IMG/VR virus record: IMGVR_UViG_3300047319_001136
Length of the DNA stretch: 64,000 nucleotides
Direction: 5' to 3' (one strand)
Source: an uncultured virus (IMG/VR IMGVR_UViG_3300047319_001136)
Taxonomy: Duplodnaviria; Heunggongvirae; Uroviricota; Caudoviricetes; Schitoviridae
In this document: in pieces, positions 7,462 to 52,900 of the stretch
Layout of the letters: every line of letters begins with the position of its first letter
Numbering within the stretch: position 1 is the first letter of the stretch
The notes under the pieces: model-generated
The model's input: the letters and a program-made list of their open reading frames with translations, nothing else
Databases searched by the model: none
Told to the model about the DNA's origin: nothing
Program-made: the position numbers and the translations under genes

Positions 7462-8502
7462 TCAGCCGTTGAGGTACTTGCTCAGTGCGCCCATGGCCGT
7501 GCGGAATGCCGGATGGTTGCGCAGGTGCGGCTGCTGGACCATCACCGCACGGAAGAACAGGATCCGGAACGAGAGGTCGAAGCGGCTGGCGTAAGTGGCC
7601 AGCGGATCGAAGTTCAGCTCATCCACGCCTTCCATCAGGTGGGAGATCGTGGCCCACTTCGAGTTGTTATCGGTGGGCACCGGCGTGCCATGCGGATCAC
7701 GGATCACCTGGTCGATCTTCACGATGTTCTGGTAGACCTGGGTGAAGGTGATGAAGTCGACGGCCACGCCGGAGGTCAGGGTGCCCGCGTAGAGCGGTGC
7801 CTTGGCTTCGGTAACAGGCTGGTCCTTGATCAGACGGTTCATGAACTCCCACGTGCGGGGGCAGCAGAACGTCTTCTCGTTGTGGTCCGGCCGGAAGTCC
7901 ATGAGCTTGCTCGGATACTGCGACAGGTACGCAATGATGCGGCTGTCGTACTTCTCCTTGAGCGCCACGTCATACAGCCATTCCTCGAACACGACGTCGA
8001 GCTCGAGGTGGATCACCCGGGACTGCATGGCGGTGGACAGGTTGTTGACGATGGCCCGGTCGGTGGCCAGGTTGCCGGCTGCCGTGATCACACACTGCTC
8101 GTGCAGATGGTACTGGCCGACCATGCGATCGAGGATCAGCTTGTAGGCGGCGGCCTGTACGGTCTTGGCCGAGGAGTTGAACTCGTCCAGAAAGAGCATC
8201 CAGCCTTCCTTGCCCTTGGGCACGGCGCTGCTCTTCAGTGGAAAGAGATCGGCGAACGGAGCGAAGCGGGCCTGACCGTTCTCGTCGAACCGGGGCAGGC
8301 CGGACAGATCTTCGGGAGCCGAGGTGGAGAGCCGGTGATCGATCATCTGCAGATGCAGATCGTTCGCTACCAGATTCATGATGCTGGACTTGCCCACGCC
8401 CGGTGAGGACTGTACGAACGGGACAAGATTTGCGTAGAGTGCGTCGGTGATGAAGCCGCGGAGTTGACGGGGTGTACAGCGATACAGGTTCGTGTCGGAC
8501 AT
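7462..8502 (-). CDS. MoxR-like AAA+ ATPase (N4 gp24-like)
   Basis: Walker A SSPGVGKS, Walker B LFLDEFN, AAGN and CPRTW motifs. Confidence 0.9.
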   Translation of the reverse strand: MSDTNLYRCTPRQLRGFITDALYANLVPFVQSSPGVGKSSIMNLVANDLHLQMIDHRLSTSAPEDLSGLPRFDENGQARFAPFADLFPLKSSAVPKGKEGWMLFLDEFNSSAKTVQAAAYKLILDRMVGQYHLHEQCVITAAGNLATDRAIVNNLSTAMQSRVIHLELDVVFEEWLYDVALKEKYDSRIIAYLSQYPSKLMDFRPDHNEKTFCCPRTWEFMNRLIKDQPVTEAKAPLYAGTLTSGVAVDFITFTQVYQNIVKIDQVIRDPHGTPVPTDNNSKWATISHLMEGVDELNFDPLATYASRFDLSFRILFFRAVMVQQPHLRNHPAFRTAMGALSKYLNG

Positions 8503-8509
8503 TATGGTT

Positions 8510-9160
8510 TCATTCAGTTTGAACCTCCGTGCCGACTTTCAGAGCTCGAAAGGTTTCGAATTTCAGGCACAGATCGTCATAGCAGCGCAGCAGGTCTTCC
8601 TTGCCGAGCGTGCGGAAGTCGCTAAAAGTTATCGAGGGTTTGTAGTCATCCAGACCAAAGCGGGCACGGGCTTTCAGGGTCACCGAATCCCCAAGAAAAA
8701 CCGGCATCATGGGTGCAAGCAGCTGCGTCTGACGGTACTCATGGCACTGGGCCATCCACTCGTCAGCAAGCCGGTGCTGTTCATTGGTCCAGCGCCACTC
8801 CGGATGCTGGGCCAGCGTCGGACGATGAAAGTGCGAGACTTCCACATTGGTCATCCACGTCTGCTCACCCTCTCCCATCACGCTCTGCACCAGATACTCG
8901 GCACAGATACCGGTGATGCGTACCTTCTTCAGCCATGCCATGCGCCACTTCGGTTGCCTGTGGCCGGCGAGCAGGAGGAGATCCCCTTCGACCAGTGCCG
9001 GATCACCATTCAGTTCCAGCGAGACCCAGCCGGTGTGGCCACCAAAGGTACGCGGTTGCTGTTGCGAGGCATTGTCTGCGCCGTAGATCCGGCTGACACA
9101 GAAGTGAAGCAGGTAATCCACGAGCTTTTCGCAGGCGATGTCGTAGTGGTGTGCGTGCAT
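8510..9160 (-). CDS. hypothetical protein (216 aa)
   Basis: Operon-consistent ORF with GAGG Shine-Dalgarno. Confidence 0.65.
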   Translation of the reverse strand: MHAHHYDIACEKLVDYLLHFCVSRIYGADNASQQQPRTFGGHTGWVSLELNGDPALVEGDLLLLAGHRQPKWRMAWLKKVRITGICAEYLVQSVMGEGEQTWMTNVEVSHFHRPTLAQHPEWRWTNEQHRLADEWMAQCHEYRQTQLLAPMMPVFLGDSVTLKARARFGLDDYKPSITFSDFRTLGKEDLLRCYDDLCLKFETFRALKVGTEVQTE

Positions 9161-9195
9161 GGCTGTCTTCCCTCAAACATAAGTTGAGGTAGAGT

Positions 9196-9582
9196 TTACG
9201 CAGCCAGCCGGTACTCCTCTGTGGGCAAGGCCACATTACGTTTACGTGCTGCCCGTCTCTTCTGGTTCTTCAGATGGGTGACGAGCTCGAGGTGGGTGGG
9301 GTTGCAGCACAGCCGGTGATTGCACAGGTGATCGATCTGCTTCTTGCCCGGGATGTAGCCGAAGTAGTGCGTGTAGACCACCAGATGCACAGCGACCGTC
9401 TGCGCATTCAGGGACATGCGGCCATAGCCACCGCCCTTGCCTTCTCCACTGGTTGGCCCCTGCCAGATGTGACAGGGACTGGGCTTGCCGTCGAGGATGA
9501 AGCCGCGGTCTTCGACGTGCACCCGCTCCATGATCCGGTCCAGGATCGAGGCGCGGCGATCGAGGATGTCAGCTGTCTTCAT
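9196..9582 (-). CDS. HNH endonuclease (N4 gp22-like)
   Basis: CHIWQG, GYGRM and IDHLCNHRLCCNPTHLELVTHLKN motifs. Confidence 0.9.
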   Translation of the reverse strand: MKTADILDRRASILDRIMERVHVEDRGFILDGKPSPCHIWQGPTSGEGKGGGYGRMSLNAQTVAVHLVVYTHYFGYIPGKKQIDHLCNHRLCCNPTHLELVTHLKNQKRRAARKRNVALPTEEYRLAA

Positions 9583-9946
9583 CGGTGATATACGTCAGTA
9601 GCTGGTCCGGGCTCAGAAATACGACGATGCGCTTGAGCTCGTCGAGCGAGATCCGCGGCTCGGTGGAATCACCCTTGGCATCAGAGCCAAGGACCAGACC
9701 TTTACCGGTCCACGCTGCTTCCTCGCCATACAGTTCCGGCATGGCCCAGAAGCTGTCCGGGCTCGGTGACTTGAGCAGGCCTTCATCGTCGACGTAGATC
9801 CCATCGCCATCCGGCATACGTACCACGTCGACCAGATCGACGCCAAGCAGACGGTAGATGTCATGCAGGCCACCGTCCTCACCCTCTGTCTTGTGCTCGA
9901 CCTCGGTGATGGTCTTTGCGATCGGATCAATCAGGAATGCTTTCAT
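9569..9946 (-). CDS. DUF3846-like protein
   Basis: AFLIDP, IYVDDEGLL and GKGLVLG pattern. Confidence 0.7.
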   Translation of the reverse strand: MKAFLIDPIAKTITEVEHKTEGEDGGLHDIYRLLGVDLVDVVRMPDGDGIYVDDEGLLKSPSPDSFWAMPELYGEEAAWTGKGLVLGSDAKGDSTEPRISLDELKRIVVFLSPDQLLTYITDEDS

Positions 9947-10010
9947 AGTTGTCCTAATCTGTAGTCTGGAGAGTGTTCAGGGAAAAGGCCTGATCAGCCC
10001 TTTTTACGCA

Positions 10011-10325
10011 TTACAGCGTACCCCGGGTCCAGTGCTGTTCGAGTTCGTCGAGCCAGCGAAGGCGATAGGCCTGCATGTTCACGGCCGTCGTGTCGTTGAC
10101 ACTCACGCCTGCCTCGTTGCACAGCCACGATTCGAGCGAACGGTATTCACCCAGACGGCTGCGGATCATCTCCTGGGCCACCTGGTGAGTAAAGCCGCTG
10201 ATCATGCCGGCGATGCGCACATCTTCCAGTGCATGACAGAGATAGCGGCGCTTGCCGGCTGTCTCCCTCGGTGTGCTGCCGTCCCACAGGTATTGCCGTG
10301 CTGCTGCAAACGGGTTGAGGCTCAT
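10011..10325 (-). CDS. hypothetical protein (MSLNPFAAAR..., 104 aa)
   Basis: AGGA Shine-Dalgarno before ATG 10325. Confidence 0.65.
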   Translation of the reverse strand: MSLNPFAAARQYLWDGSTPRETAGKRRYLCHALEDVRIAGMISGFTHQVAQEMIRSRLGEYRSLESWLCNEAGVSVNDTTAVNMQAYRLRWLDELEQHWTRGTL

Positions 10326-10686
10326 TGCTTTTTCCTGGCTCCTTGGCCTGTATCTCTCCAGCCTGCATGTGTTGGAATAAGGGGATTCCGACCCCCAAGA
10401 AAACACCGCTTGACAACCGGTATTTCTTACTTGCAACACATCAGACAGGACGCAATTCTAACTAAATACCCCCTAAAGAGTAAACTGTTGTAAAGGGGTA
10501 TATTAGATATATATTTGGCGTGTAGAAACGGCTGAATGTGTGCTATGTCGGGGCCTTACGCTGACGGGTGCGCGTACTATCAGGGTAACTTTGAGGGGTC
10601 AGCCGGATTTACCGACAGACAATAAAATCATGTAGTTAGCTGCGGTGCACCTTCCGGTAGGGGAGCTGTCAGCTGTAACGGAATGT

Positions 10687-10720
10687 AAAAAAGCCCACCG
10701 CGAGGATGGGCTTTTTTTTA
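10687..10720. terminator. bidirectional terminator
   Basis: AAAAAAGCCCA...TGGGCTTTTTTTT. Confidence 0.85.
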
Positions 10721-10773
10721 CACATGCCGTAATGGGGTGTTACGACTTTGTGGATGATCAGGATGTTAGTCCG

Positions 10774-11103
10774 TCAGTCCATCATGTCGCCGTTGTTGGG
10801 CAGACCGTCGTTCTCCGGCTCGACCATCGTGCCGTGGTTGTAGGCAGCAGCAATGGCCGGGTCAAGCCTGATCTGCACACGCTGCATATCACGCTCGTTC
10901 TGCTTGTAGAGCAGGTCACGCACGTTCTGCTGCAGCACGTGGTTGCCGGCGTAGCCCAGCGGATCGCTGCCATCGTCGTAATGGACGGTGCCAGCATTCA
11001 TACTGCCAGCGGGAAGTGCGGCAGCCGGTGCCTGCAGGGTGGCCACACCAGTGGTGGCATTCCAGGCGAGCTGGTAGGTACCAGGCGTATAAACAGGATT
11101 CAT
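10774..11103 (-). CDS. N4 gp17-like capsid decoration protein (N-terminal domain only)
   Basis: LAWNATTGVATL...LPAGSMNAGT...VRDLLYK resembles, from memory, the N4 gp17 N-terminus; same position directly after RNAP subunit 2. Confidence 0.6.
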   Translation of the reverse strand: MNPVYTPGTYQLAWNATTGVATLQAPAAALPAGSMNAGTVHYDDGSDPLGYAGNHVLQQNVRDLLYKQNERDMQRVQIRLDPAIAAAYNHGTMVEPENDGLPNNGDMMD

Positions 11104-11194
11104 GGCTATCCCTTCGAAGGAGAGAGGTTGATCAACCAGCCTGTACATAACGTTCATGCGTACAGGCCAGCCCGAAGTTTACCTGGGTTTCCTC

Positions 11195-12388
11195 TTACGA
11201 AAGCGCGTACTCGGTGTCCAGGATGTCCTCCCAGAGCGACGCATCCGCCTTGCCACACTGCACCTTGCGTCCGACCAGCTGGCTGAGCAGGAAGTCCAGC
11301 AGCCGGCTCCTTGCAATCAGCATGAGCTGGCGGTTGTACTGCTCACGCAGGTCATTGGCATGGTTCGGCAGGCAGCGGAAGCAGTCATGGATGGTCATGA
11401 TCTGGAAAGGTTGCGCGGGCAACGATTCCAGCAGTTCACGGATCACCGCGGCATCGACCAGATCGATATTGCTGCCGTACAGGTGATCCAGGATACGGGC
11501 CGACAGGTAGCCTGAATGCTGATACAGACCCCAGAGCTGGATGACCAGCTCATCGTCCGTGTCCTGACCGGTACTGGTATCCCCGTCCAGTGCCCGCCAC
11601 ACCCGGCTGATCGTCACCGGGTCGTAGTTGCAGCGGCGGTTCATCTCCCGCACGATCATGCCGTCGATCGAGTGGATGGTGTTCGCCCCCAGACTCCTGC
11701 CCTCCTCCACGGGTGCGTTGACTGCACGGAACGTGTCGAACGGCTCGTTCAGGAAGTGCACCGTCTCCTTCACCTGGCTCATGACCTTCACATGCACGTG
11801 GAAGTTATCTGGCAGCACCCAGCTGTTGCACAGCGCCTCCGGGTTCCAGATGTCGAGGAACGCCTCGTTGAGCTCCCAGGCAGCCGGTGCCAGCTCCTTC
11901 ATGGTGTCGTAGAAGATGGCGAGCAGCGCACCTTCCCCGAACACTTCCTTGGGCACAGCCTTGGAACCATAGAGCGAGGTCATCACGGACTGCTTGACCT
12001 GATCGCGCTTGATCTTGCCCTCTTCGCCAATGGTGTCGAGCATCCGGTCATAGACGCCCGTATAGGCATCTTCCCGGTTGCCGGTGCTGACGACATTGCA
12101 CAGCTGCGCAGCTGAGCGGTCACCGGTCAGTACGGCGAGGATCTGCAGGCCGGACGCGGTAGCATCAAGCGAGACCGGGTAGCCCGACGGCTGGGCAGCC
12201 AGTGCTGCCTCGTAGGCCTTCACGCCGGCGTAGTACAGCGCCGGCGTCTCGGCGGTGGCCAGCATCTCCATCAGGCAGTCCCTGTGCTGGTCGAACCAGT
12301 CAAGGCGCTCATCCCACGTACTTTTGTCCAGACCGAAGTTGGAAGCGATATCGATTTTCAGGTATTGCAGGCCGGAGAAGCGTTGCAT
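11195..12388 (-). CDS. phage RNA polymerase II subunit 2 (N4 gp16-like)
   Basis: T7-type motif A LDATASGLQ, motif B RDQVKQSVMTSLYGS, ANTIHSIDG, and motif C IHDCF. Confidence 0.95.
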   Translation of the reverse strand: MQRFSGLQYLKIDIASNFGLDKSTWDERLDWFDQHRDCLMEMLATAETPALYYAGVKAYEAALAAQPSGYPVSLDATASGLQILAVLTGDRSAAQLCNVVSTGNREDAYTGVYDRMLDTIGEEGKIKRDQVKQSVMTSLYGSKAVPKEVFGEGALLAIFYDTMKELAPAAWELNEAFLDIWNPEALCNSWVLPDNFHVHVKVMSQVKETVHFLNEPFDTFRAVNAPVEEGRSLGANTIHSIDGMIVREMNRRCNYDPVTISRVWRALDGDTSTGQDTDDELVIQLWGLYQHSGYLSARILDHLYGSNIDLVDAAVIRELLESLPAQPFQIMTIHDCFRCLPNHANDLREQYNRQLMLIARSRLLDFLLSQLVGRKVQCGKADASLWEDILDTEYALS

Positions 12389-12419
12389 GGTGTGTGCTCC
12401 AAAACGTAATGACCAAAGA

Positions 12420-12452
12420 AAAAGCCACCGGAGTTACCGCACGGTGGCTTTT
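12420..12452. terminator. terminator between the plasmid module and RNAP subunit 2
   Basis: AAAAGCCACCG/CGGTGGCTTTT 11-bp stem with A/T tails on both sides. Confidence 0.8.
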
Positions 12453-12589
12453 GGGGTATGACGGTATTACAGGTCAGTCAGCGCGTTCGTAGTAGGCCCA
12501 TGATCCGCTTTCTTCTCTGCGCACGAGACGAGGGTTGGAAAATCCTCCTTTCGCGTAGAACTGTTCTTTTGTGATGCGTGTGTAACCGA

Positions 12590-12817
12590 TCATGATTGAC
12601 CTTTGCGGAACTTGTCGAGCAGCGCATTCAGCTGCTGCTGGTTGAGGTAGTCGATGTCCGAGATGTTCACGGGCGGCAGTGGCCTGGCCGCATCGATCTT
12701 GGAGAGCCGCTTGAGAATGGGTGCGACCTTGCGCCGGTATTCCTTGTGCAGGGCTTCAAGGATCCAGCGCAGCTCCTGCTCCTCGGTCTCGAATCGGGGG
12801 ATGTTTTCGATGGCCAC
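12590..12817 (-). CDS. hypothetical protein (75 aa)
   Basis: Follows the 86-aa gene after a 3-bp gap. Confidence 0.65.
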   Translation of the reverse strand: MAIENIPRFETEEQELRWILEALHKEYRRKVAPILKRLSKIDAARPLPPVNISDIDYLNQQQLNALLDKFRKGQS

Positions 12818-12820
12818 GAT

Positions 12821-13081
12821 TTACCCCTGGCGTTCCAGTTTGCGCAGACGCTCTTCGAGCCGGTTCTGCGTCTCGTCGTGCTGGTCCATGGTGGCCCATT
12901 GCTGGACCACCGCAGCGTGTAAGCTGGCCACCTGCTGCTCGACTGCTGACAGACGCGTCTTGACCTGAAACAGCTCGACGAACAGCTTGCCTTCCACCTG
13001 GTCAATGCGGTCCAGCACCTGATCGAGTTTGACCAGCACGATGTTCTTCGGCTCCTGCGGTGTGTCAGGTGTATCGCTCAT
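12821..13081 (-). CDS. coiled-coil hypothetical protein (86 aa)
   Basis: GGAGG Shine-Dalgarno; heptad leucine/valine pattern. Confidence 0.7.
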   Translation of the reverse strand: MSDTPDTPQEPKNIVLVKLDQVLDRIDQVEGKLFVELFQVKTRLSAVEQQVASLHAAVVQQWATMDQHDETQNRLEERLRKLERQG

Positions 13082-13297
13082 TTATCCTCCGGCTTGTCCA
13101 CCGTTTCTGTGGATAACTTTCTGTTCGGTCGGGTACGCAAACTGTTTACTTAGTAAACCAGTCTTCTCTTATTAGTGACTCTGTGGGAGACCTGAACCCC
13201 GGTTTCAGGTATCAGGTAGAGACTTATCGAACGGTCGTACGTCTCCCACAGATACGTCTCAGTGTGAGACCCATGTTACAGGTCTCAGTCAGAGACC
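13082..13297. promoter_or_regulatory. putative plasmid replication origin
   Basis: Perfect DnaA box TGTGGATAA (13108-13116), a two-mismatch box (13094-13102), an AT-rich stretch with palindrome GTTTACT-T-AGTAAAC (13144-13158), and seven GAGAC/GTCTC repeats (13187-13296), all immediately downstream of the Rep-like gene. Confidence 0.65.
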
Positions 13298-13929
13298 TAT
13301 GGCTTCTTCATCTCAGCCAATCGTCTGACCAGGATCTCCTTCAGTTCCTTGGGCAGCATGTCCATATTATCGAGCAGTGTCTGGATGTTGATCTGGATCG
13401 AGCTGTCGTTGGCGGTATTCACGTTGACCGTCAGGTTCTCGATCTGTACGATCTTCGCACCGCTGAAGTCTCCCGTCATCTTGACGTGCTTCAGTTCTGC
13501 GATGGCTGAGCTCACGCCCAGTGGCAGGTAATCCCAGCTGGCATCTGCCACATGGTTGCCCTGCTTGTCCTCGATGTCCACCTTCTCCCGGAAGATGTAG
13601 AGGTTGCCTCGGCCAACCGGTTTCTTGTCCCGGCGCACGTAGCCCATTTCCTCCAGCACATCGAGCGCCCGGTGAACCTGGGCCTTGGAGATACCCGATT
13701 CCGTAACGATCGTGGCGATCTCCGGGAAGCTGTGACCCTTGCTGAAGCTGGTATGCGCCTTGATCACCGAGTACACGGTGAAGGCATACGGCCCCATCTT
13801 GGCAACATCACCCGATGCGATCATCGACTTGAATACGTGGAACCAGCGTGTCTCGGCCTTGAATAGCTCGAGCTGCTGGATCTTCTCTGGCTCATCATCA
13901 AACAACTCAGGTACGTTGGAGGCGTTCAT
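13297..13929 (-). CDS. winged-helix protein, putative plasmid replication initiator (210 aa)
   Basis: AFTVYSVIKAH...SFPEIATIVTESGISKAQVHRALDVLEEMGYV...GRGNLY (HTH_36-like pattern); TGATG coupling to the partition gene; adjacent origin-like DNA. Confidence 0.7.
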   Translation of the reverse strand: MNASNVPELFDDEPEKIQQLELFKAETRWFHVFKSMIASGDVAKMGPYAFTVYSVIKAHTSFSKGHSFPEIATIVTESGISKAQVHRALDVLEEMGYVRRDKKPVGRGNLYIFREKVDIEDKQGNHVADASWDYLPLGVSSAIAELKHVKMTGDFSGAKIVQIENLTVNVNTANDSSIQINIQTLLDNMDMLPKELKEILVRRLAEMKKP

Positions 13930-14288
13930 CAGAAGCCCTCCTTCTCTGCCTTGGCGATCTCCTTGTCCAGCGCCGCCTCCAGCGTCTTGGCCACGAAGTC
14001 CTTCAGGTTGGGGATCTTCTGCCATGCCTTGAGCGTGTGCAGCTTGGTCTGAACCCGCTGCGGCACCTCGTAGTTGGCCTTGACCAGCTGGTCTTGGTTA
14101 TCCCAGGGTCTACGGCGGATCGGTGCGGCGTCCTTGCTTGCTTCCTTGGTTTCTTGCTTACTTTGTTCCTTGATCTCTTCCTTCATTGGTTCATTGGAAG
14201 ATTGATTGGAAGCTTCATTGCTTCCTTGCAATGACACAGGAGCCGCCGCTCCTTTACGGACAAGGGTATTGAGCGTGGGCCTAGACAT
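13929..14288 (-). CDS. ribbon-helix-helix centromere-binding partition protein (ParG-like, 119 aa)
   Basis: Overlaps the parA stop; disordered basic N-terminus; C-terminal VKANYEV strand followed by two helices. Confidence 0.7.
   Translation of the reverse strand: MSRPTLNTLVRKGAAAPVSLQGSNEASNQSSNEPMKEEIKEQSKQETKEASKDAAPIRRRPWDNQDQLVKANYEVPQRVQTKLHTLKAWQKIPNLKDFVAKTLEAALDKEIAKAEKEGF
14131..14232. repeat. 4-bp periodic array inside the partition gene (parS-like)
   Basis: tcct tgct tgct tcct tggt ttct tgct tact... about 25 tetramers in phase. Confidence 0.7.
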
Positions 14289-14925
14289 GAGCTTTCTCCC
14301 GTTTCACAGGCTTCTCGAACTGACTGAGGATGAAGGTAGCGACGTTATCCACCACGATGGCACCGGTACCTTTGTTCATCTCCTTGAATGTACGTCCGTC
14401 GATCATCGACTGCCAGTAGCCATTCAGCTTGGGAATGCTCTGAGGAATGACAGGCCCGAATGCAGCCAGCGTGCTGGTGGCTTCCAACGTGACGCCCTTG
14501 CCATTGGTCTCGTTGAGCAGGAAGAAGAACTTCTTCTTTGCCTTCTCGCACAGCTCGACAGTCGACTCAGCTGCCCGAGTATCGTGGGGTGAGTGTTTGA
14601 CTGGGATGACCACCAGGTCTGCCAGATCGATGGCGATCTCATTGATTTCATGGCTCGACGGCGGTGTATCGATGATGCACCAGGCGAAGCCAGCAGCCTT
14701 TAATTCAGCGTGTTTGCTGGGTAAATCGCTCGGCGTATCCACCTTGGCGAAGGCTGGCGTATCCGCTTTGCGGTCATTCCACCAGGCTGAAAATGAGCCT
14801 TGGGGATCCAGATCCATCGTAACGACTGGCCCTTTGCCCATGGCTTCCAGCGCCACGGCGAAGTGGGCTGAGTGTGTGGTCTTGCCGCTCCCGCCTTTCA
14901 GGCATGAGAACACGACAGTACGCAT
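14281..14925 (-). CDS. parA: ParA family partition ATPase (short type Ib / ParF-like, 214 aa)
   Basis: Deviant Walker A KGGSGKTT, DLDPQGS, IIDTPP and ADLVVIP motifs; AAGGAG Shine-Dalgarno before ATG 14925. Confidence 0.93.
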   Translation of the reverse strand: MRTVVFSCLKGGSGKTTHSAHFAVALEAMGKGPVVTMDLDPQGSFSAWWNDRKADTPAFAKVDTPSDLPSKHAELKAAGFAWCIIDTPPSSHEINEIAIDLADLVVIPVKHSPHDTRAAESTVELCEKAKKKFFFLLNETNGKGVTLEATSTLAAFGPVIPQSIPKLNGYWQSMIDGRTFKEMNKGTGAIVVDNVATFILSQFEKPVKREKAHV

Positions 14926-14931
14926 AGCAAC

Positions 14932-15100
14932 TCCTTGATTGGTTGGTTGAATGCAAACTTGCAAACTATAAACCAACCTTGGAGAGTTGCTTACTTACTT
15001 GGAAACTTGAAAGGAACCAAGGAAACAATATTACTTACTTCCTTGGAAGCTTCCTTCGTTGGTTCCTTCCTTACTTCATTGATTGGATCCCAATGAAACT
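14932..15100. repeat. 4-bp periodic array upstream of parA (centromere/operator-like)
   Basis: About 40 consecutive in-phase tetramers, nearly all W-N-N-W (tggt tggt tgaa tgca aact...tact tact tcct tgga agct tcct). Confidence 0.75.
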
Positions 15101-15159
15101 TGCACGCCAGTCCACGAGTGGGCGCCGACAGGTGCATAGGGTAGGGCAGATGTCTTTGC

Positions 15160-15342
15160 TCATGCCATCCTCTCGTTGATTGCTTCAGCGATCAGCTCGG
15201 TAAGATAAGTCAGGGACTCGTGATACTCATCCTGAATGTCCTGATGTTCCTCCGGCCGCTGAGCGCCTTTGGTCTCATGAGCACGCACAGCCTGCTCGAA
15301 TCGCTGGATTGCTTGACCCAGCTCCATTACCCGGTCACTCAC
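15160..15342 (-). CDS. hypothetical protein (60 aa)
   Basis: Overlaps the stop of RNAP subunit 1. Confidence 0.6.
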   Translation of the reverse strand: MSDRVMELGQAIQRFEQAVRAHETKGAQRPEEHQDIQDEYHESLTYLTELIAEAINERMA

Positions 15343-16163
15343 GTTGTCACCTCGCCTTGTGCGAACTCGATCACGGCTTTATTCCAAGGTGTTCCCTGGT
15401 AATTTGCATGATGGCCTTGGCAGTACGTTCGACCACGTTTGTCGTACTTGTGGGTGAAGTGGAACTCATTTCCATGTTGAATAAGGGTGTCAATGACATC
15501 CTTCGCGGTGGCGTCATACTTGTTAAAGGCCCGCACCCGACGATCAAAATCCGCCTGCGTTTCTCCATCCTTGGGTCGATCAAGGTTTCTCCATTCGTTT
15601 TTGATCATGGTGGCCGTGTCGAAGTTGATCTTGAACTTCACACGGTTCATGCGATTGATGTGGTCGAGGCACACATCATCGTCATGGTGGTTGTCCTTCA
15701 GGATGATCGAGCCACGATGGAGGAAGTAGCCCGACTGGGCGTTGTTCTTCACTTCCTGTGGCTCAACGACCATCGGCAGCGGATACTGGAAGCGATCGAT
15801 TTCAGCCTGCACATCAGCACTGATCGTGAACTTCACGATGAAGATGCGCAGGTCAGGGGACCAGTCCATCAGATCAGCCATTGCACATTTAAGCAGCAGA
15901 TCCGCACATTGCTGCGACGAATCACACAGGTGCCGCAGGCAGCCGATCAGGGTAGGCAGATCCGCACGCTTGTGCAGGGCCATCTGGATCAGCACACCGA
16001 AGCCGAAGTCTTCGGGAATACCCTGGGACTTGAAGTGCACTGCGAATGCTGGCTCAGCCATGAACTCATCGCGGATACGCTGGATGGTCTGGTTCTTCGA
16101 ATACAGACGTTCGAGCTCGATCTGGTGAGCAGCACGTTTATCATGAATGCTGGAATCAGACAT
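15339..16163 (-). CDS. phage RNA polymerase II subunit 1 (N4 gp15-like)
   Basis: QYPLPMVVEP and THKYDKRGRTYCQG (DxRGR motif); GAGGAG Shine-Dalgarno before ATG 16163. Confidence 0.93.
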   Translation of the reverse strand: MSDSSIHDKRAAHQIELERLYSKNQTIQRIRDEFMAEPAFAVHFKSQGIPEDFGFGVLIQMALHKRADLPTLIGCLRHLCDSSQQCADLLLKCAMADLMDWSPDLRIFIVKFTISADVQAEIDRFQYPLPMVVEPQEVKNNAQSGYFLHRGSIILKDNHHDDDVCLDHINRMNRVKFKINFDTATMIKNEWRNLDRPKDGETQADFDRRVRAFNKYDATAKDVIDTLIQHGNEFHFTHKYDKRGRTYCQGHHANYQGTPWNKAVIEFAQGEVTT

Positions 16164-16338
16164 GTTCGATCTCCTCTTCGAGGACAGTGACCTTGACGAG
16201 CTTGAGGATGGGCTGTGTGCCTGGTGCATTGCGCACCTTGTCCACGTGCTTCATCACGTTATCCAGCGAGCCTTCCATGACCTTGCGACCGATACCGGTA
16301 CGCAGGATGTAATGCTCGGTGCTGTGTGCAGTGTTCAC
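16156..16338 (-). CDS. hypothetical protein (60 aa)
   Basis: Overlaps both neighbours. Confidence 0.6.
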   Translation of the reverse strand: MNTAHSTEHYILRTGIGRKVMEGSLDNVMKHVDKVRNAPGTQPILKLVKVTVLEEEIEHV

Positions 16339-16724
16339 TTGAATGTTCCCCAGAAATTAGCCTGATCGAGCATGTAGGGCTTCCACGCATCATCGAACTG
16401 GCAGTTCGCCGGCGCCGTAAAGAAGAGGGGAGCGATGAGACTGTCGTGATAGCCGGCCAGTCCACAACCAATGCGGGTCACCTGAAAGGTGAGGTTTGGA
16501 TGTCCTTCCGCATAGGCCAGAAAGCCATCGATGTAGCGCGCGATACGCAATGCCGAGATGGTCTGAATTTCAAGACCCTTGGTGGGAATGGCGAACGAGT
16601 CACCATAGTGGCCATAGCTCATGCCCCAGCGTGCACCGTGCTTCTTGTAGGCAGCTGCAGCAGCGCCGGCACCATGGATGCCTGCTTCGTTGGATCCGAA
16701 GACGAAAATGGGTTTGTTGCTCAT
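16335..16724 (-). CDS. macro-domain-like phage protein
   Basis: IFVFGSNEAGIHGAGAA, SFAIPT and FQVTRIGCGLAG motifs. Confidence 0.75.
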   Translation of the reverse strand: MSNKPIFVFGSNEAGIHGAGAAAAAYKKHGARWGMSYGHYGDSFAIPTKGLEIQTISALRIARYIDGFLAYAEGHPNLTFQVTRIGCGLAGYHDSLIAPLFFTAPANCQFDDAWKPYMLDQANFWGTFK

Positions 16725-17053
16725 GCCATCTCCTTGATTGCCTGTTCGATGACCTTCCTGATCACATCACCGTGACAGGCCTTGGGTGCACAGAAACACT
16801 GCAGGCACACAGGCTCACCTGAGTCATCCATCACCATGGCACCAATGCGCTCCAGTTCATTGAGGATGGCTTCGTTACCAGCCTGCATCTGTTCCTGCAG
16901 ATACTCACCATAGAGATACACAGCAGCTTCCCGTGTTACTCCTGGTTCAATCCTGACTGGATTGCCTAGCGGTGAGGGTCGGCCGATGTAGACATAGCGA
17001 CGGTTGGGCCACTGACCGTGGAATTTGTTGGTGACCCTGAGTTCATTTGGCAT
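16721..17053 (-). CDS. DUF4326 family protein
   Basis: YVYIGRPSPLGNP and LQCFCAPKACHGDVI motifs. Confidence 0.85.
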   Translation of the reverse strand: MPNELRVTNKFHGQWPNRRYVYIGRPSPLGNPVRIEPGVTREAAVYLYGEYLQEQMQAGNEAILNELERIGAMVMDDSGEPVCLQCFCAPKACHGDVIRKVIEQAIKEMA

Positions 17054-17420
17054 GTTCACGAGCCCACGCAATACGCTTCGGGTTACGGTGGCAGGCACCG
17101 CGGTCTGCCTCCAGGTTGTACTGGCTGGATAGCTCATGAAAGGGATGCAGGAAGCTGGTGGATAGCTTCATGAACTGGGCTTGCAGTTCGTTGCCCAGAT
17201 TCCGATACTCCACCTGAGCATGCCTGTTTGCCCATTGACGCAAGGCACCGCACAGTCCGTGGTGACGGCTGAAGCCCATTTCCTTGGGAGCACCGGCATC
17301 CAGCCATGCTGCGTAGGCTCGATAGAACTGGGTGAGGAGTTCGGACTGTCTGGGCATCTCGAACGTGCCGAGATACTGGTCGTGGAATTCTTTAGACGAG
17401 GTGAGCGGCTTCGATTGCAT
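17043..17420 (-). CDS. hypothetical protein (MQSKPLTSS..., 125 aa)
   Basis: Operon-consistent ORF. Confidence 0.65.
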   Translation of the reverse strand: MQSKPLTSSKEFHDQYLGTFEMPRQSELLTQFYRAYAAWLDAGAPKEMGFSRHHGLCGALRQWANRHAQVEYRNLGNELQAQFMKLSTSFLHPFHELSSQYNLEADRGACHRNPKRIAWAREHAK

Positions 17421-17430
17421 CTTTGCTCTC

Positions 17431-17484
17431 TTGGTTGTTTGGTTGTTTGGAACCTTGCCTGCTTGGTTCCTTGGTTCAGTGGTG
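17431..17484. repeat. third 4-bp periodic array
   Basis: tggt tgtt tggt tgtt tgga acct tgcc tgct tggt tcct tggt; intergenic. Confidence 0.6.
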
Positions 17485-17787
17485 TGTGACACGCAGTCTG
17501 GGTGGTGCAGGATCGTTCGCAGCAGGTGCCTCGAACTTCTTCCAGCGCTCAACCTTCGGGATTGGGCAGCGGTGCTGGATGACACGCACAATGCGCTCGG
17601 CTACCGTTTTCTCTTCCATGTTCAACCGCTCGAACCCCTTGCCTGTCTGCACATTGCACAGGGCAAGCGGATAGTGGGTGGGTAGGGCATAAAAGGCCTG
17701 ATACAGCCGGATGACGTCGGTACCCATCATCTGTTTCTCAGTCATCTGCAATACTTGAAGCACATCCTTCGAGTCCGGATTGGACAT
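17476..17787 (-). CDS. hypothetical protein (MSNPDSKDVL..., 103 aa)
   Basis: AAGGGG Shine-Dalgarno before ATG 17787. Confidence 0.6.
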   Translation of the reverse strand: MSNPDSKDVLQVLQMTEKQMMGTDVIRLYQAFYALPTHYPLALCNVQTGKGFERLNMEEKTVAERIVRVIQHRCPIPKVERWKKFEAPAANDPAPPRLRVTHH

Positions 17788-17806
17788 GGGCTGCCCCCTT
17801 GCTATG

Positions 17807-18340
17807 TCATAAGCAGGCCTGTTTGAATGAGTCGACGAACGTCGACATGGCCTGTTGGTCGTCGTCAAACGCGATGTTGAAACTGGGAATCCCGTACAAC
17901 GATGCGAGACGCACGGCATTACCGGTACCACCCTGTGGGATACGCTGCGCAGCCCAGTAGGCGACGAACTTCACCGGATCATTGAGCTCAGGCCCAAGGA
18001 TGATGGACACGTTGCGCATCATCAGCTTGCGCGATCCCTGACTGAGCCTGTCCCAGGCTGGATGGGCTATCCTGGCCACGGCTTCCAGTGCATCGGTCTG
18101 TGGGCTGATGAAGAAGCCTTCACCGCCACCGTTATTGAAGCCCTGCCATGGCAGGTAGATCTCCCGCATCGGTGGCCGGTGACAGCAGGCAAATGCCTGG
18201 TCAGCGCCCTGTGCATGGCCGGAGCGGACCATCCATCCTTCGCTGTCGAGCTGCCGGCCAACGCTGGCCATCATCTCGCAGACATCGAGCGGCGTCTGTC
18301 TTGGGCCGATTCCGGCGTACTTCAGTGCTTTAATGGCCAT
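17807..18340 (-). CDS. SLOG / DprA-Smf-like Rossmann-fold protein
   Basis: YAGIGPRQTP, VRSGHAQGADQAF, LMMRN and GGTGNAVRLA motifs. Confidence 0.8.
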   Translation of the reverse strand: MAIKALKYAGIGPRQTPLDVCEMMASVGRQLDSEGWMVRSGHAQGADQAFACCHRPPMREIYLPWQGFNNGGGEGFFISPQTDALEAVARIAHPAWDRLSQGSRKLMMRNVSIILGPELNDPVKFVAYWAAQRIPQGGTGNAVRLASLYGIPSFNIAFDDDQQAMSTFVDSFKQACL

Positions 18341-18479
18341 CGATTGGCTATCCCCTGGTGTTTAGGCTGTCTTCGTCCAAAAGCACGAAAACGCTCAACT
18401 TGCTCTTTAGAAGTTGAGACTATCTATTAGAGTTAAGTTTGAGGAAGCCAGATTGTAGCCTGGCTTCCCCGAAAGGTGT

Positions 18480-18884
18480 TTACGCGAATTGCAGCTTGGC
18501 GGTGTACTTGTTCGATGCATCGACCGCCACCGGCTTGTCTTCCTTCACCCGACGCACCTGCGCCTGGATCATGAAGACCGCGTCCTGACCCGGTTCCAGG
18601 GTTTTGGCATGCGCCATGATCTGGTCGAGCAGGTCATTGCGTGCCGCCTGTAACTGGGCGAACTCCTCGTTGCTGGAGTTGGTCTTCAGGCGTTCCATGG
18701 TGTCCAGCGGAATGCCGATCGGCAGCGACACGAACGTGTCACCTTTGCCTTCTTCGGGCTTGGCCGTACCCTCGGCCACGAAGCCGATGTTCAGCCAGAA
18801 CTGCGCCTTCGGTGCTTCTGCGCCATTAGCCTTCCTGCCTGCTTCTGCTTTGTTAGCGAACTGGAGTGCGAAATCGATTGCCAT
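18480..18884 (-). CDS. N4 gp2-like ssDNA-binding RNAP II activator (134 aa)
   Basis: KAQFWLNIGF, FVSLPIGIPLDT and QVRRVK motifs; early position behind a hairpin promoter. Confidence 0.8.
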   Translation of the reverse strand: MAIDFALQFANKAEAGRKANGAEAPKAQFWLNIGFVAEGTAKPEEGKGDTFVSLPIGIPLDTMERLKTNSSNEEFAQLQAARNDLLDQIMAHAKTLEPGQDAVFMIQAQVRRVKEDKPVAVDASNKYTAKLQFA

Positions 18885-18956
18885 GATGAGTGTCCTCAAA
18901 GATATGTCGAGAGATTGCGGGAAAAGTAAAAATGGTGCTCGTAGGTCAGCACCCAA

Positions 18957-18975
18957 CCAAAAGCGCCGCAGGCGC
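18957..18975 (-). promoter_or_regulatory. N4-type virion RNAP hairpin promoter (template is the + strand; leftward transcription)
   Basis: CC-AAAA-GCGCC-GCA-GGCGC: 5-bp stem with a C-GNA-G triloop. Confidence 0.8.
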
Positions 18976-19010
18976 CACAACTACGTGTTTAAATCAGGAG
19001 CCGCCAAGGA

Positions 19011-20582: not shown

Positions 20583-20617
20583 GATCATCTCCTAACAACT
20601 AAGGGTTGGGCGATATG

Positions 20618-20636
20618 CCAGCAGCGCCGCAGGCGC
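20618..20636 (-). promoter_or_regulatory. N4-type virion RNAP hairpin promoter
   Basis: CC-AGCA-GCGCC-GCA-GGCGC; hairpin identical to the copy at 18963. Confidence 0.8.
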
Positions 20637-21001
20637 CGTGTATGTGTAAGGGTGGGTACTGACCCACCCTCCATGTGAGACACCCGGGGGGGTGTACTGT
20701 GTATGTGGGCCTGGAGGCCCCCTAGCTGCCAGGGAACATAACTATCAAAAATGCTGGAACCCGACCGGCATAAAAATTGGCGCAACTTCTCTCTATATGC
20801 AGATATGTTTGGGGTCAACCTGGTGACGGCCTGACTGTATATGTAGACCTTTCCTCTCTGGCTCAGCTGTGTGCAACTAACCGTCTGTCCAACGTCCAGT
20901 CAGGAGACACAGAAGAAAAGGGTCAGAGTCCTGTCTGCAAAAATATGAGAGACAAGTTGGGCCGACTAGAGATAAGTTTGGGGTCTGGGGGTGTTGAGGA
21001 C

Positions 21002-21037
21002 AAAAGAAAAGGCGGAGGACCGTGGGTCACTCCGCCC
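21002..21037 (-). terminator. rho-independent terminator
   Basis: GGCGGAG...CTCCGCC followed by TTTTCTTTT on the minus strand. Confidence 0.75.
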
Positions 21038-21273
21038 TGGGCCGGTAGTCATGACCCGGCCGGCACCGGGGAAGCATCACTGTCTGGGCACTGACCGGAG
21101 CCAGTGAAGGAGTTTGACAGCTGCCACTGTGGAAGTTATTGACCCCACTCTCCACTGGGGTTGAAGAAGACGCAAGCGAAGTCAACCGTCATCGTCAGCC
21201 GCGAGCCAGGCCATTGGCAGCCTTGAACGCGATTCCAGGTTAACACATGGGGTTATTTATGTGAAGAATTCCT

Positions 21274-21292
21274 CCCCCTGTTGCGGAGCAAC
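21274..21292 (-). promoter_or_regulatory. N4-type virion RNAP hairpin promoter near the predicted genome terminus
   Basis: CC-CCCT-GTTGC-GGA-GCAAC: 5-bp stem with a GGA triloop. Confidence 0.7.
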
Positions 21293-49934: not shown

Positions 49935-52900
49935 ATGGCAACTGCACAAGAAATCTTCGACCAGTATGTTGGAGGGCCAGCTGCTGCTGCTGCGACAGCT
50001 AATGCGCCTTCCCTGGTTTCCCCTGGTTCCCCCAATCCGGGCGGATCTGCTGTGGGCGCACAACCTACCAAACAGCAACAGGTCGTTTCTGCGGCCGACT
50101 CGAAGATCTCGGGTCTTGCCCAGATGGCCAATGCCAAGCAGATCGACCTGGCACAGCAGAATGGCTATGTGGGTGATGCAGCCCGGCTGGCGCTTGCTCC
50201 GTTAAATCAGGCACTTCAGGCAGCAGCGGGACAACCGGGTATGGTTCCGGCTGATGTGGCCTACAACGCTGCGCTCGCCCGCAAGACAGGTCAGGGGCTG
50301 AATTCCATGCCGTCGCAGCTTGAGGCGGATATGGCCTCGCTGCCGGTCTGGTCCCTCATTGACAAGTATGGCTACGACCAGGCCATGCAGATGATGCAGG
50401 CACGCCAGACAGCCCAGAACCAGATTGGATCCGATGCCCAGGCAGGCGGTCGTAGTCTGGCCTCGGCGACTGGAGATCTTGCGCTGGGTGTTTACTCAGG
50501 CGCAGCAAATTCCCTGGGTGGAATTGCGGCACTCGGTGCGGGTGCGGTTAACCGGAATGCTGGTACGGCGATTGCCCGGAATATTGAGACGTTCAACAAT
50601 GCCGTGGCGGATAACCAGTCGTCGGCGCTGGGTTCAGCCCATCGACTGAATGCCGCCACGAATGCGCTCGGCTACCGGGACAACGCTGTCCAGGCGGAGG
50701 GTTTTACTCCCGGTCTGCAGGGCATCGGCCGGGAAGTGCTCAACGCCGGTACGGCGATCAGTAATGCCGTCTCCGATCCGATGGTTGCATCCGATGGTCT
50801 CGCACAGGGTATTGGCTCGCTAGTCACAGCAGGTCCGATCGGCAAGGGGATTGGTCTTGGGGCAAAGGCGCTTCTTGGTGGTGCTGAACACCTGGGACTC
50901 CTAGGCGTTGGCCTGAAGGGCGAACAGATGGCGGCGAAACTCGCCCCTCTGGCTCACGATGTGGCCATGCCGGGCTCGATCGGTCTCACGGAAGCGGGCG
51001 GTGCCTACCAGCAGACGGCAGCCGACATCATGGGCAAGTCTGATGCGGATCTGCGCAAGGACTCACCCACGTATGTGGATCTGGTGGATAAGCAGGGCAT
51101 GAGCTCCGATCAGGCGAAGTCGGTTATCGCCAACCGGGCGGGTCTGTTTGCCGCGGCGGTGCAGGGACCGGCCGCCATGATGACGGGCAAGCTCGTCGAG
51201 CACTTCGAAGCCCATCCGTTCTCGGTGCCGTCACTGCGTGTAGCGGGCCAGAACATCCTCAAGGAAGGCCTCGAGGAGACGATCCAGTCGGGGACCGGCC
51301 AGCTTGCCCAGAACATGGGTACGCAGAAGTCAGGAGCCAATCCTAATCAGGATCTGCTGCAAGGTGTCGGTGAGCAGGCTGGCCTGGGTGGTCTCTATGG
51401 CATGGCCTCGGCCGGTGCGGTACAGGGTCCGGGTGCCGTGCTCTCGTCAGGAACCCGTGCCGCACTGAATATTGGTAGCGCTGCAATCCCTGCCCTCAAG
51501 GGTGCAGCGAATGTTGCGGGTGCCGTGGCAAAGCCGGTCATCGATCTGGCGGCAAAGCGGGGCGATGCGGTGGCTGCCGGCAATGAAGCGGCCTCACCGG
51601 TCAGTGACCAGCATGTGGCCCAGGCTGCGCAGGAAGCAACGGATAACCTGCCGGCTGCCATGCAGGCGGTCGATCAGGCAACCTCCGAGCAGGCTGCCCC
51701 AACGATGCCTGCACCGGACCGGGATGCAGTGCGCAACTATGCCCGCCAGATGGCCTCGGTCATGCAGTACGACCCGAATGAGCCCGCTGCCCGTGGCATG
51801 CCGCAGGCGGCCCAGGATGCGATTGCCGGCTCGACGAACCGGGTTGAAGCGATGCAGCGTATGGCCTCGTTCATCGCGGACCCGAAGCAGACGCTGGAAG
51901 ACAGGCTCGATATTGCCGGTGCACTGCAGGATGACCTGCAACAGGTCAAGCAGCTGGGCGAAAGCCGGCCTGATGTGCTCGATGCAATGGGACCGGATCA
52001 TCCGATCTCGCAGATGATGACCGATGTAAATGGTCTGCTTACCCACGTCACTGAACAGTCGCCGCTGCTGAAGAAGGCACAGACGGCGGCCCAGGATGTG
52101 GCGCAGAAGGTCACGGTACCGGAGATCACCGAGCAGTCGGCCGACACGCCCGAAGGCAAGAAGGACATCCAGACAGTAGCCAATGTGGCTTCGCTGGCTC
52201 CCGAGCGGGTAACACCGGAGCAGGCCGAGCTCGTCATGAAGATGCAGACGGCCGGCAGGGTGGATCTGTCGAATAACCAGAGCGCTGGTATCCGTTCGGC
52301 ACTCGCCATCCTGAAGGGTCGGCAGGACTACATCGACCAGCTCAAGGCCAACGGCCAGACGGCATCGAAGGACATCGTGGCCGAGCAGGTGTCGACAGCC
52401 AAGGAGTCCCCGGAAGGTCGGGAGTCGGCCGCCCAGCACATCCAGAATGTCCGCAATGCCTACGCATCGGGGAATACGGAAGGTGCCCGGACTGCCCTCA
52501 ATGACTTCGGCAAGTTTGCCCAGTCACAGCAGAACAAGGTCAGTGCGATCAATGGCCAGATTGAGGAGCACGGTGTGCGCTCGACCACGGCCAACTCCCG
52601 TCCGTACCAGTACATCTCGCCGGACAAGTCCGAGTGGCGTACTTCGGAGAAAGGTTTCGGTGTCACGCCGACTTCCCGTGCCTCGGTGGAGAATGCCCAG
52701 CATGTCGGCGCTGAAGCCCATGCGCTCACCGAGATACATAACTCGCTCGCCTCGGCCTATCCGGAGCTGAAGGTCAAGCCGTTGCAGCAGGTGGAGCTGC
52801 ATCCGTCGCTGACCGGTGACACGCCGGCGAAGGTGGCGCAGGAGTGGGCACAGGGCAAGCGCTCGGTAGGTACAGCTACTGCTACTGCTACTACTGCCAC

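Follow-up and report, generated by a model that had tools for sequence, protein, structure and literature searches.

Phage-plasmids are textbook systems, as are type Ib partition and DnaA-assisted iteron replicons. The plasmid prophage of P1 has RepA and an oriR with DnaA boxes together with ParA-ParB-parS, and ParF-ParG-parH of TP228 represents type Ib partition. The lambda O protein is a winged-helix initiator whose dimers occupy four or five phased palindromes beside an AT-rich stretch. Cluster A mycobacteriophages carry parABS in place of an integrase, and we know of no dedicated plasmid Rep or ori described for them. The strictly lytic lifestyle ascribed to N4-like phages is the reason why they are widely proposed for therapy and biocontrol. 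Here we describe an insert in the genome of an N4-like (Schitoviridae) phage from an uncultured virus record (IMG/VR IMGVR_UViG_3300047319_001136), of which a stretch of 64,000 nucleotides, called the window below, was analysed. Judged from its sequence and its relatives, the insert is quite probably a functional cassette of partition (par) and replication (rep) genes that gives the N4-like phage extrachromosomal persistence.

Integrase-bearing N4-like proviruses were reported in 2023, according to the accessible part of a survey (PMC10654107), and the statement in an initial annotation of this DNA that N4 and most of its cultured relatives are regarded as lytic is therefore partly dated. The words "plasmid" and "partition" are absent from the accessible text of that survey. 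The accessible parts of two phage-plasmid catalogues (PMC7969092, PMC12977533) contain no N4-like type and remark that podoviruses are few among the phage-plasmids, and their Acinetobacter group AB_1 is a siphovirus type of 101-122 kb. Our literature search, with subscription journals and supplements outside its reach, found no description of an N4-like phage-plasmid, and no paper was found on phage vB_IME_Ab2712, which is discussed below.

The insert and its relatives

In the window, the genes of the two subunits of the N4-type RNA polymerase II (RNAPII) are 5 kb apart, compared with about 2-2.4 kb in cultured relatives. The small-subunit gene (15,339-16,229, minus strand; phrog_2166, 2.3e-102) on the left and the large-subunit gene (11,195-12,388, minus strand; phrog_2051, 2.5e-161; PF00940, 9.1e-22) on the right are split by an insert of about 2.9 kb. 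It lies on the minus strand throughout and opens with a periodic array, parA, a small gene and a winged-helix gene; palindromes and an AT-rich patch come next, and a DnaA box precedes two small genes and the terminator. The initial annotation had listed these elements on the minus strand, and each of them was located. It had also noted the lack of an integrase, and none of the scanned window proteins matched one. By gene content, with complete phage genes, plasmid rep and par genes and no integrase in the 64 kb, the window corresponds to a phage-plasmid. Our results confirmed the observation and, as far as sequence comparison can tell, supported the interpretation as a candidate phage-plasmid.

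The support for this interpretation came from the exchange of the winged-helix gene for Rep_3 in an N4-like relative, from the co-travel of palindromes and DnaA boxes with the winged-helix gene, and from circular N4-like relatives. The relative with the exchange, G373:C7, is a 79,569-bp N4-like contig in a 7.1-Mb genome assembly, which is syntenic with the window and was found in one of 397 scored genomes (family of a Burkholderia diffusa genome). Between its RNAPII subunit genes, it encodes a ParA and a ParG with 61% and 41% identity to those of the window, and its third gene is a Rep_3 gene (PF01051, 2.5e-35; PF21205, 2e-18) with five 22-bp iterons and TTATCCACA ahead of it. No homolog of the winged-helix protein was found in the G373 genome. 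In L089, a non-N4 phage contig in IMG/VR, the winged-helix gene is likewise swapped for Rep_3. Since Rep_3 stands at the equivalent place in both, the winged-helix gene appears to fill the initiator slot of a modular par-rep cassette, and the ParA and ParG homologs beside a Rep_3 replicon in G373:C7 support the earlier proposal of a type Ib-like partition system with a replicon in an N4-like phage. G373:C7 is circularly closed, as the open reading frame (ORF) of a 436-aa superfamily 1 helicase spans its ends, the junction being preceded by 48 nt and followed by 1,260 nt of the frame. None of the 13 integrase matches in the G373 genome lies on this contig.

A second circular relative, pRBH2-3 (75,126 bp), belongs to a complete Acinetobacter baumannii assembly and is a full N4-like genome, with 53.5%, 34% and 36% identity to the window in the major capsid protein, ParA and the winged-helix protein, respectively. 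It also has a 10.9-kb gene of the size of the virion RNA polymerase gene, as well as RNAPII, portal and terminase large-subunit genes. Its ParA, small protein and winged-helix genes are at another genome position, adjoining a serine recombinase. Over 94% of 18.5 kb, pRBH2-3 shares 98.3% identity with the phage record vB_IME_Ab2712. No tyrosine integrase (PF00589) was found in pRBH2-3 or in the complete record of L001, an N4-like relative with the cassette. The autonomous circle was seen for pRBH2-3 and G373:C7, the window being known from a metagenome contig alone, and stable extrachromosomal carriage of N4-like relatives as circles is likely. The RefSeq "chromosome partitioning protein ParB" of pRBH2-3 (L008, 32,905-35,154; record, 58,104-60,353) aligns with the window portal (46%), and its name is probably a mis-annotation, judging from this alignment.

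The trio of ParA, small protein and winged-helix protein was also found on the 104-kb Polaromonas plasmid pA29BJ2, which is without phage genes, and is followed there by three iterons and three DnaA boxes. The (incomplete) gene table of this plasmid holds no other replication gene. Its annotation (L066, 36,159-36,962) includes a class D beta-lactamase, a type I restriction-modification system, several toxin-antitoxin pairs and aromatic-catabolism genes. Cassettes of ParA, ParG and either the winged-helix protein or Rep_3 without RNAPII flanks were present in L067, L069, L071-L087 and L089, IMG/VR contigs of 9-54 kb, and tail-spike, holin, DarB-like or primase genes are the neighbours at such other loci. 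The variety of phage backgrounds implies a mobile par-rep module common to several candidate phage-plasmid types.

The insertion site is the same in six N4-like records (the window, L001/L068, L070, L088, L090 and G373:C7). Compared with L001 at dS of about 1, the dN/dS ratios were 0.045 for the winged-helix gene, 0.12 for parA, 0.37 for parG and 0.19 for the RNAPII large-subunit gene, values which indicate that the cassette sequence is under purifying selection. A DNA search of the cassette against plasmids gave only a 161-nt patch of parA with 70% identity.

The phage around the cassette has the hallmarks of Schitoviridae. A giant ORF of virion RNA polymerase size (3,610 aa, 49,935-60,767) lies in the late block beside the N4-type structural genes, and the two-subunit RNAPII is accompanied by the N4-type major capsid protein (phrog_1357), portal (phrog_1216), terminase, single-stranded DNA-binding protein, primase and rIIA, so that the virion polymerase, RNAPII, capsid, portal and replication genes by which the family is recognised are all present. 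All lytic genes are intact. The window is far from deposited phages, since megablast of 22 kb of late genes covered at most 6% at 74-79% identity, with N4-like phages of Burkholderia, Achromobacter, Pseudomonas and Xanthomonas as the best matches.

The identical sequence was found in a 75,088-bp contig of the rhizosphere metagenome run X1; the window represents 64 kb of the 75,088-bp source contig, 11 kb of which lie outside it. All eight runs listed for the window sequence are rhizosphere metagenomes, and there is no RNA run among those listed, which says nothing about expression. Besides the identical X1 contig, three further runs have near-identical contigs that include the cassette, and none of the run contigs was seen to join the flanks without it. 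The early (minus-strand) and late (plus-strand) blocks adjoin at about 20,600-21,280, and the N4-type genome ends are therefore read through. The initial annotation had drawn attention to this read-through; it is real, but it is not diagnostic of a plasmid, because terminally repeated linear phages also assemble as circles. A comparison of window 9,000-19,000 with record 1 of run X1 showed the X1 contig to be a rotated version of the window source, and window positions below about 3,721 would pass the record end (mapping offset). From this rotation, the assembly of the window genome is circular, as would be expected equally of a plasmid and of a linear phage with terminal repeats. No molecule ends were seen in the run contigs, which as contig data have no bearing on topology.

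The candidate initiator and origin

The winged-helix gene (13,297-13,929, minus strand) encodes a 210-aa protein of the HTH_36 family, a candidate replication initiator, with residues 45-98 matching PF13730 (34.3 bits against a cut-off of 25, 2e-8); this family was also matched by 103 of the 104 listed homologs. As the initial annotation had described, the gene is coupled to the preceding small gene by TGATG. The best PHROG match was phrog_28562 (1.9e-26), while the replication-initiator, DnaD-like and O-like PHROGs matched weakly (2e-8 to 1e-5). In the fold comparison of the predicted model (VIA), the top row was the N-terminal domain of the staphylococcal initiator RepA (4pta_D; Z 9.1, 96 aligned residues, root-mean-square deviation 4.7), and DnaB and DnaD-like rows had Z scores of 8.4 and 7.0. 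A Foldseek search of the model against the PDB gave no match at E <= 0.001 and only generic winged-helix rows (MarR, PerR, Rio2). The PDB profile search gave marginal matches to generic winged-helix proteins, including TubR, AspA and SmtB at E 0.004-0.03; NCBIfam had nothing useful for either this or the small protein; and the ESM Atlas returned only HTH_36 clusters with minor shares of DnaD_N and RP-C. The protein matches only PF13730 and generic winged-helix families and, by sequence, is not a member of the WH1-WH2 Rep_3 family (PF01051/PF21205), though it appears in the functional slot of Rep_3. What the protein is cannot be told from fold and profile searches alone and is decided by the comparison of loci. 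Among the aligned family members, 23 of 25 have a Qx[ED][LM]F motif near the N-terminus, which we take to resemble the beta-clamp-binding motif of Hda and TrfA.

The candidate oriV (13,082-13,296, minus strand) directly follows the winged-helix gene and comprises palindromes, an AT-rich patch, a GTTTAC-TAA-GTAAAC palindrome and a DnaA box. Five GTCTC-N5-GAGAC palindromes are located within the 120 bp of 13,177-13,296 with spacings of 26, 15, 32 and 32, and these are five of the seven matches to this pattern in the window at up to one mismatch. The AT-rich patch at 13,140-13,179 has a GC content of 0.325, and a perfect DnaA box, TTATCCACA, is at 13,108-13,116. The repeats beside the box and the patch are thus palindromes and not direct iterons. 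All the elements that the initial annotation had named here (DnaA box, AT-rich and repeat DNA) are present, but the DnaA box alone is not above chance, as the window contains 11 matches at up to one mismatch against 8.4 expected. The box gains weight because it is conserved in relatives: it was kept between the window and L001 while its flanks diverged, and the layout of the whole candidate oriV is the same in L001-L004 despite diverged flanks.

The co-travel of these sites with the winged-helix gene was observed across 58 loci. In 20 of them, the 350 nt that follow the winged-helix stop codon contain a perfect DnaA box, against none of 96 control segments, and the looser TTWTNCACA was present in 29 compared with two of the 96 controls. 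Many of the loci are related, and those with a box represent at least nine distinct lineages, not 20 independent events. Three or more GTNTC-N5-GANAC palindromes, mostly 32 nt apart, followed the winged-helix gene in 17 of the 58 loci and in none of 95 controls.

The putative partition module and its periodic arrays

The parA gene (14,281-14,925, minus strand, ATG start) encodes a ParF-like Walker ATPase of 214 aa with the KGGSGKTT motif that the initial annotation had recognised (phrog_164, E 5.4e-30). Further matches were AAA_31, MipZ, CbiA and VirC1, and NF041546 matched at E 1.3e-34 with 119.5 bits, under its curated cut-off of 180. The protein has the deviant Walker A motif (KGGxGK[ST]) and no N-terminal helix-turn-helix (HTH), as is typical of the small ParA (about 200-230 aa) of type Ib partition.

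The adjoining gene (13,929-14,288, minus strand) overlaps the parA stop by 8 nt and encodes a small protein of 119 aa, a ParG-like centromere-binding candidate. Its 13 aligned homologs share a conserved N-terminal peptide (MS[KR]..L...V..KG.AAP), a K/E-rich linker with a 4-aa period and a C-terminal domain (about residues 70-119) resembling a ribbon-helix-helix (RHH). No family match was found for it in the Pfam-type, PHROG and NCBIfam profile searches. In the AlphaFold2 (AF2) model, residues 1-60 are disordered and the helices 77-88 and 95-117 are confident, with a C-terminal pLDDT of about 88. The best VIA rows of the C-terminal fold were mostly RHH proteins (antitoxins, omega), at weak Z scores of 4.7-3.3; the PrpA RHH domain, omega and the PutA RHH domain are RHH by title, and ParD, TacA, NikR and CopA_SO are RHH proteins as well. 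The overlapping RHH gene of the initial annotation is thus borne out in its overlap, and its RHH character, found by no HMM, is indicated by architecture and weak fold matches. The public gene call (P0107) starts at the internal Met35 and gives 85 aa; the 119-aa form is favoured since the first 20 residues are conserved in L001 and other homologs. The predicted complex of residues 1-35 with two ParA molecules and ATP scored 0.36 compared with 0.00 for the best of three controls, a weak result with a partner pLDDT of about 50, and without a high prior likelihood, a pass of this kind is, by the prediction tool's own counts, false more often than true. Taken together, the sequences support a partition system of type Ib-like composition, with a ParF-like ATPase and a candidate ParG-like partner.

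Upstream of parA, a non-coding array (14,917-15,113, minus strand) has a 4-nt period (NNAA/NNTT), with a period-4 signal of 0.291 compared with a maximum of 0.213 in 20 block shuffles, in agreement with the periodic repeat array of the initial annotation. It includes the repeat families D1-D3 and I16 and an inverted AACCAAGGAA/TTCCTTGGTT pair at 15,011-15,068, and the core inverted repeat or hairpin is also terminator-like. A second array with 4-nt and 12-nt periods (14,107-14,258; signal 0.273) lies in the linker-coding part of the small gene. When translated, the upstream array (14,991-15,137, minus strand) yields a peptide containing NEVRKEPTKEASKEVSN, which resembles the K/E-rich linker of the small protein; by this likeness, the upstream array and the linker-coding DNA look like mutual duplicates.

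Among the 26 IMG/VR loci with the ParA subtype of the window, 22 were tested, and most of these have arrays ahead of parA as well as within the small gene, non-N4 phages included; in 19 of the 22, arrays occur nowhere outside these two places. The divergent cassettes L002-L007 have no periodic arrays. Since the arrays travel with the ParA/ParG subtype across phage backgrounds, they belong to the partition module and are likely, as a candidate assignment from sequence, to be the centromere or operator of the small protein. A repeat array beside parA, as expected of type Ib partition, is therefore present as a predicted site that exceeds the shuffles and is co-inherited.

Extra arrays outside the cassette were seen only in N4-like carriers, clustered near the RNAPII small-subunit gene and early genes. 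In the window, a third array (17,390-17,508; signal 0.278) lies upstream of the early gene at 17,043-17,420. Others were located in L088 (5,058-5,151; 5,530-5,626), L090 (2,692-2,762; 4,570-4,647; 5,414-5,516) and L062 (4,541-4,621; 5,708-5,771), and G373:C7 likewise has extra arrays near its RNAPII small-subunit gene. These may be further putative binding sites of the small partition protein.

The rest of the insert agrees with the two small genes and the terminator of the initial annotation. The first gene, orf86 (12,821-13,081, minus strand), encodes a small coiled-coil protein with only weak SlyX/DUF7310 matches; it has homologs in L001, L070 and L088 and is kept in N4-like relatives having the cassette. 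The second, orf75 (12,590-12,817, minus strand, GTG start), is without a family match in the Pfam-type and PHROG profile searches and has homologs in L001, G373:C7 and L090. An intrinsic terminator with a hairpin and T-run (12,415-12,453, minus strand; 11-bp perfect inverted repeat I22) closes the cassette ahead of the RNAPII large-subunit gene, and a similar hairpin is at the equivalent place in L001.

Probable persistence of the phage and comparison with known systems

Several observations weigh against a phage-plasmid with this cassette as its replicon and partition system. No repressor, antirepressor or lysis-lysogeny switch was found in the 64-kb window, and a simple scan upstream of parA showed no sigma-70 consensus promoter. 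The source is a metagenome, from which the host and the physical state of the window phage are not known, and circular contigs could stem from a carried lytic phage. The initiator rows of the fold comparison are tied with generic winged-helix and MarR-type regulators, so that the profile and structure searches which the initial annotation had called for gave weak initiator PHROGs and RepA as the top fold without separating it from such regulators. The TubR and AspA profile matches (E 0.004-0.02) leave the reading as a centromere binder possible. Half of the loci (29/58), pRBH2-3 included, are without even the loose DnaA box, and the winged-helix family also occurs in integrated islands and in type IV secretion system (T4SS) operons. 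Finally, many start codons in G373:C7 are preceded at 8-12 nt by the AACCAAGGAA 10-mer, which makes the motif signal partly like that of a ribosome-binding site; for this reason, AACCAAGGAA as a specific centromere word was rejected as sole evidence.

The cassette might instead serve an essentially lytic phage in a carrier state or pseudolysogeny, with slow replication and even distribution of the phage genomes, for example in starved rhizosphere hosts, with no repressed prophage. This is unlikely in our judgement, although the intact lytic genes and the missing switch in the window would suit it, and N4-like viruses can enter a pseudolysogenic stage according to the accessible part of the survey (PMC10654107). 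The closed-circle relatives in finished or near-finished bacterial assemblies argue for stable inheritance over many generations. The carrier state differs from the plasmid-like persistence proposed here only in the degree of phage silence.

It is quite improbable that the winged-helix protein is a transcription regulator or a third partition component like AspA or TubR, with the palindromes as operator or centromere and the phage enzymes replicating the genome. The generic MarR/ArsR-type fold matches, the TubR, AspA and SmtB profile matches and the centromere-like phasing of the palindromes speak for such a role, as does the name "transcriptional regulator" which the source annotations give to relatives. 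This role would leave unexplained the position of the protein in the cassette, which is taken by Rep_3 with iterons elsewhere, as well as the enrichment of DnaA boxes, the conserved Qx[ED][LM]F motif and the Polaromonas plasmid with no other annotated Rep. In the islands, moreover, the winged-helix gene stands without ParA beside an integrase and AlpA, where a centromere binder would lack its motor.

The HTH_36 family was observed in chromosomes of Burkholderia, Bordetella, Pseudomonas, Stutzerimonas and Pandoraea. In the island layout, the winged-helix gene is placed directly behind the genes of a tyrosine integrase and an AlpA-like protein and is followed by cargo such as restriction-modification systems or T4SS genes (L012, L017, L031, L036, L056 and L059, at about 7,600-10,600 each), a layout which by its gene order fits an int-alpA-rep-ori module. 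Inside T4SS operons, the gene lies between VirB3 and VirB4 or between TrbC and TraF (L029 and L051, at about 9,950-10,600). No N4-type capsid gene was found in the genomes with chromosomal winged-helix islands (G002-G006).

That the cassette is a passenger without a role in the phage, as a captured plasmid fragment, selfish insert or assembly chimera, is suggested by its mobility among unrelated phage backgrounds but is largely refuted, and very improbable, given the same site in six N4-like records, the purifying selection at dS of about 1, the identical contig in X1 and the near-identical cassette-spanning pieces in three more runs.

Taking the insert as a self-contained plasmid maintenance cassette, it would provide low-copy extrachromosomal persistence, either as a phage-plasmid or as a stabilised carrier state. 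From family and architecture, the ParF-like ATPase would be driven by the small protein, which would attach to the 4-nt arrays on either side of parA through an RHH-like C-terminal dimer and stimulate ParA through its conserved N-terminal peptide. By comparison with the other loci, the five phased GTCTC-N5-GAGAC palindromes downstream of the HTH_36 gene would be occupied by dimers of its product, and the TTATCCACA box next to them by host DnaA. The AT-rich patch lying between these sites would then open and allow the helicase to be loaded, and the N-terminal QLELF-type motif may recruit the beta clamp. Hairpins at both cassette ends would insulate it from phage transcription.

A more tentative and rather doubtful idea, built on the array positions, is that N4-like phage-plasmids keep latency without a CI-type repressor and that the ParG-like protein doubles as a repressor of the middle-gene switch. 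Early transcription in this group needs the virion-injected RNA polymerase, and a genome copied with DnaA and partitioned by ParA would be silent once this enzyme is gone. The partition protein could then act as a lock at the arrays at parA, around the RNAPII small-subunit gene and at 17,390-17,508, which occur in this extent in N4-like members only, and the two RNAPII subunit genes are themselves separated by the cassette.

If the plasmid-like persistence is true, a new phage family, and a podovirus, would be added to the phage-plasmids, and "lytic by family" would have to be judged differently, as relatives of the window phage are circles in assemblies of the Burkholderiaceae family and Acinetobacter. 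It would also pose the question of how latency is established and kept in a phage that relies on an injected polymerase for its early programme. The results further point to an uncharacterised candidate initiator family, in which an HTH_36 protein with a clamp-binding-like motif is combined with a DnaA box and phased palindromes, and which is common to phages, plasmids and integrative islands.

Compared with the described systems, the window resembles P1 as a tailed phage with its own initiator, repeated sites, DnaA boxes and ParA-type partition apart from lytic replication. Unlike P1, a myovirus with the C1 repressor, type Ia ParA/ParB, direct iterons and a Rep_3-like RepA, it is an N4 podovirus in which no repressor was found and which has a ParF/ParG-like pair and HTH_36 beside palindromic sites. 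It shares with TP228 the small ParA without HTH, a partner with a flexible N-terminus and, as predicted for the window protein, an RHH-type C-terminus, and phased short repeats upstream of parA, and it differs in a small protein without a family match, in NNAA/NNTT tetramers and in the second array within the coding linker of the partner. The winged-helix candidate with phased palindromes and an AT-rich stretch is like lambda O and ori-lambda, in line with the weak O-like PHROG matches, whereas in lambda the sites lie inside the O gene and P loads DnaB, and in the window the sites lie downstream of the gene and are accompanied by a DnaA box. As in Cluster A mycobacteriophages, which are siphoviruses of Actinobacteria with a known repressor and were among the ParA matches, integration would be swapped in the window phage for ParA-based extrachromosomal maintenance.

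Among the relatives, pRBH2-3/vB_IME_Ab2712 is likewise an N4-like genome with ParA, small protein and HTH_36, and it is both a 75-kb circle of an isolate and deposited as a phage; it is of a distant lineage, with another cassette position, a serine recombinase, no 4-nt arrays and no DnaA box. G373:C7, L001/L068, L070, L088 and L090 share with the window the clade, the site between the RNAPII genes, the ParA/ParG homologs and the periodic arrays, and among them G373:C7 uses Rep_3 and 22-bp direct iterons where the window has HTH_36 and palindromes.

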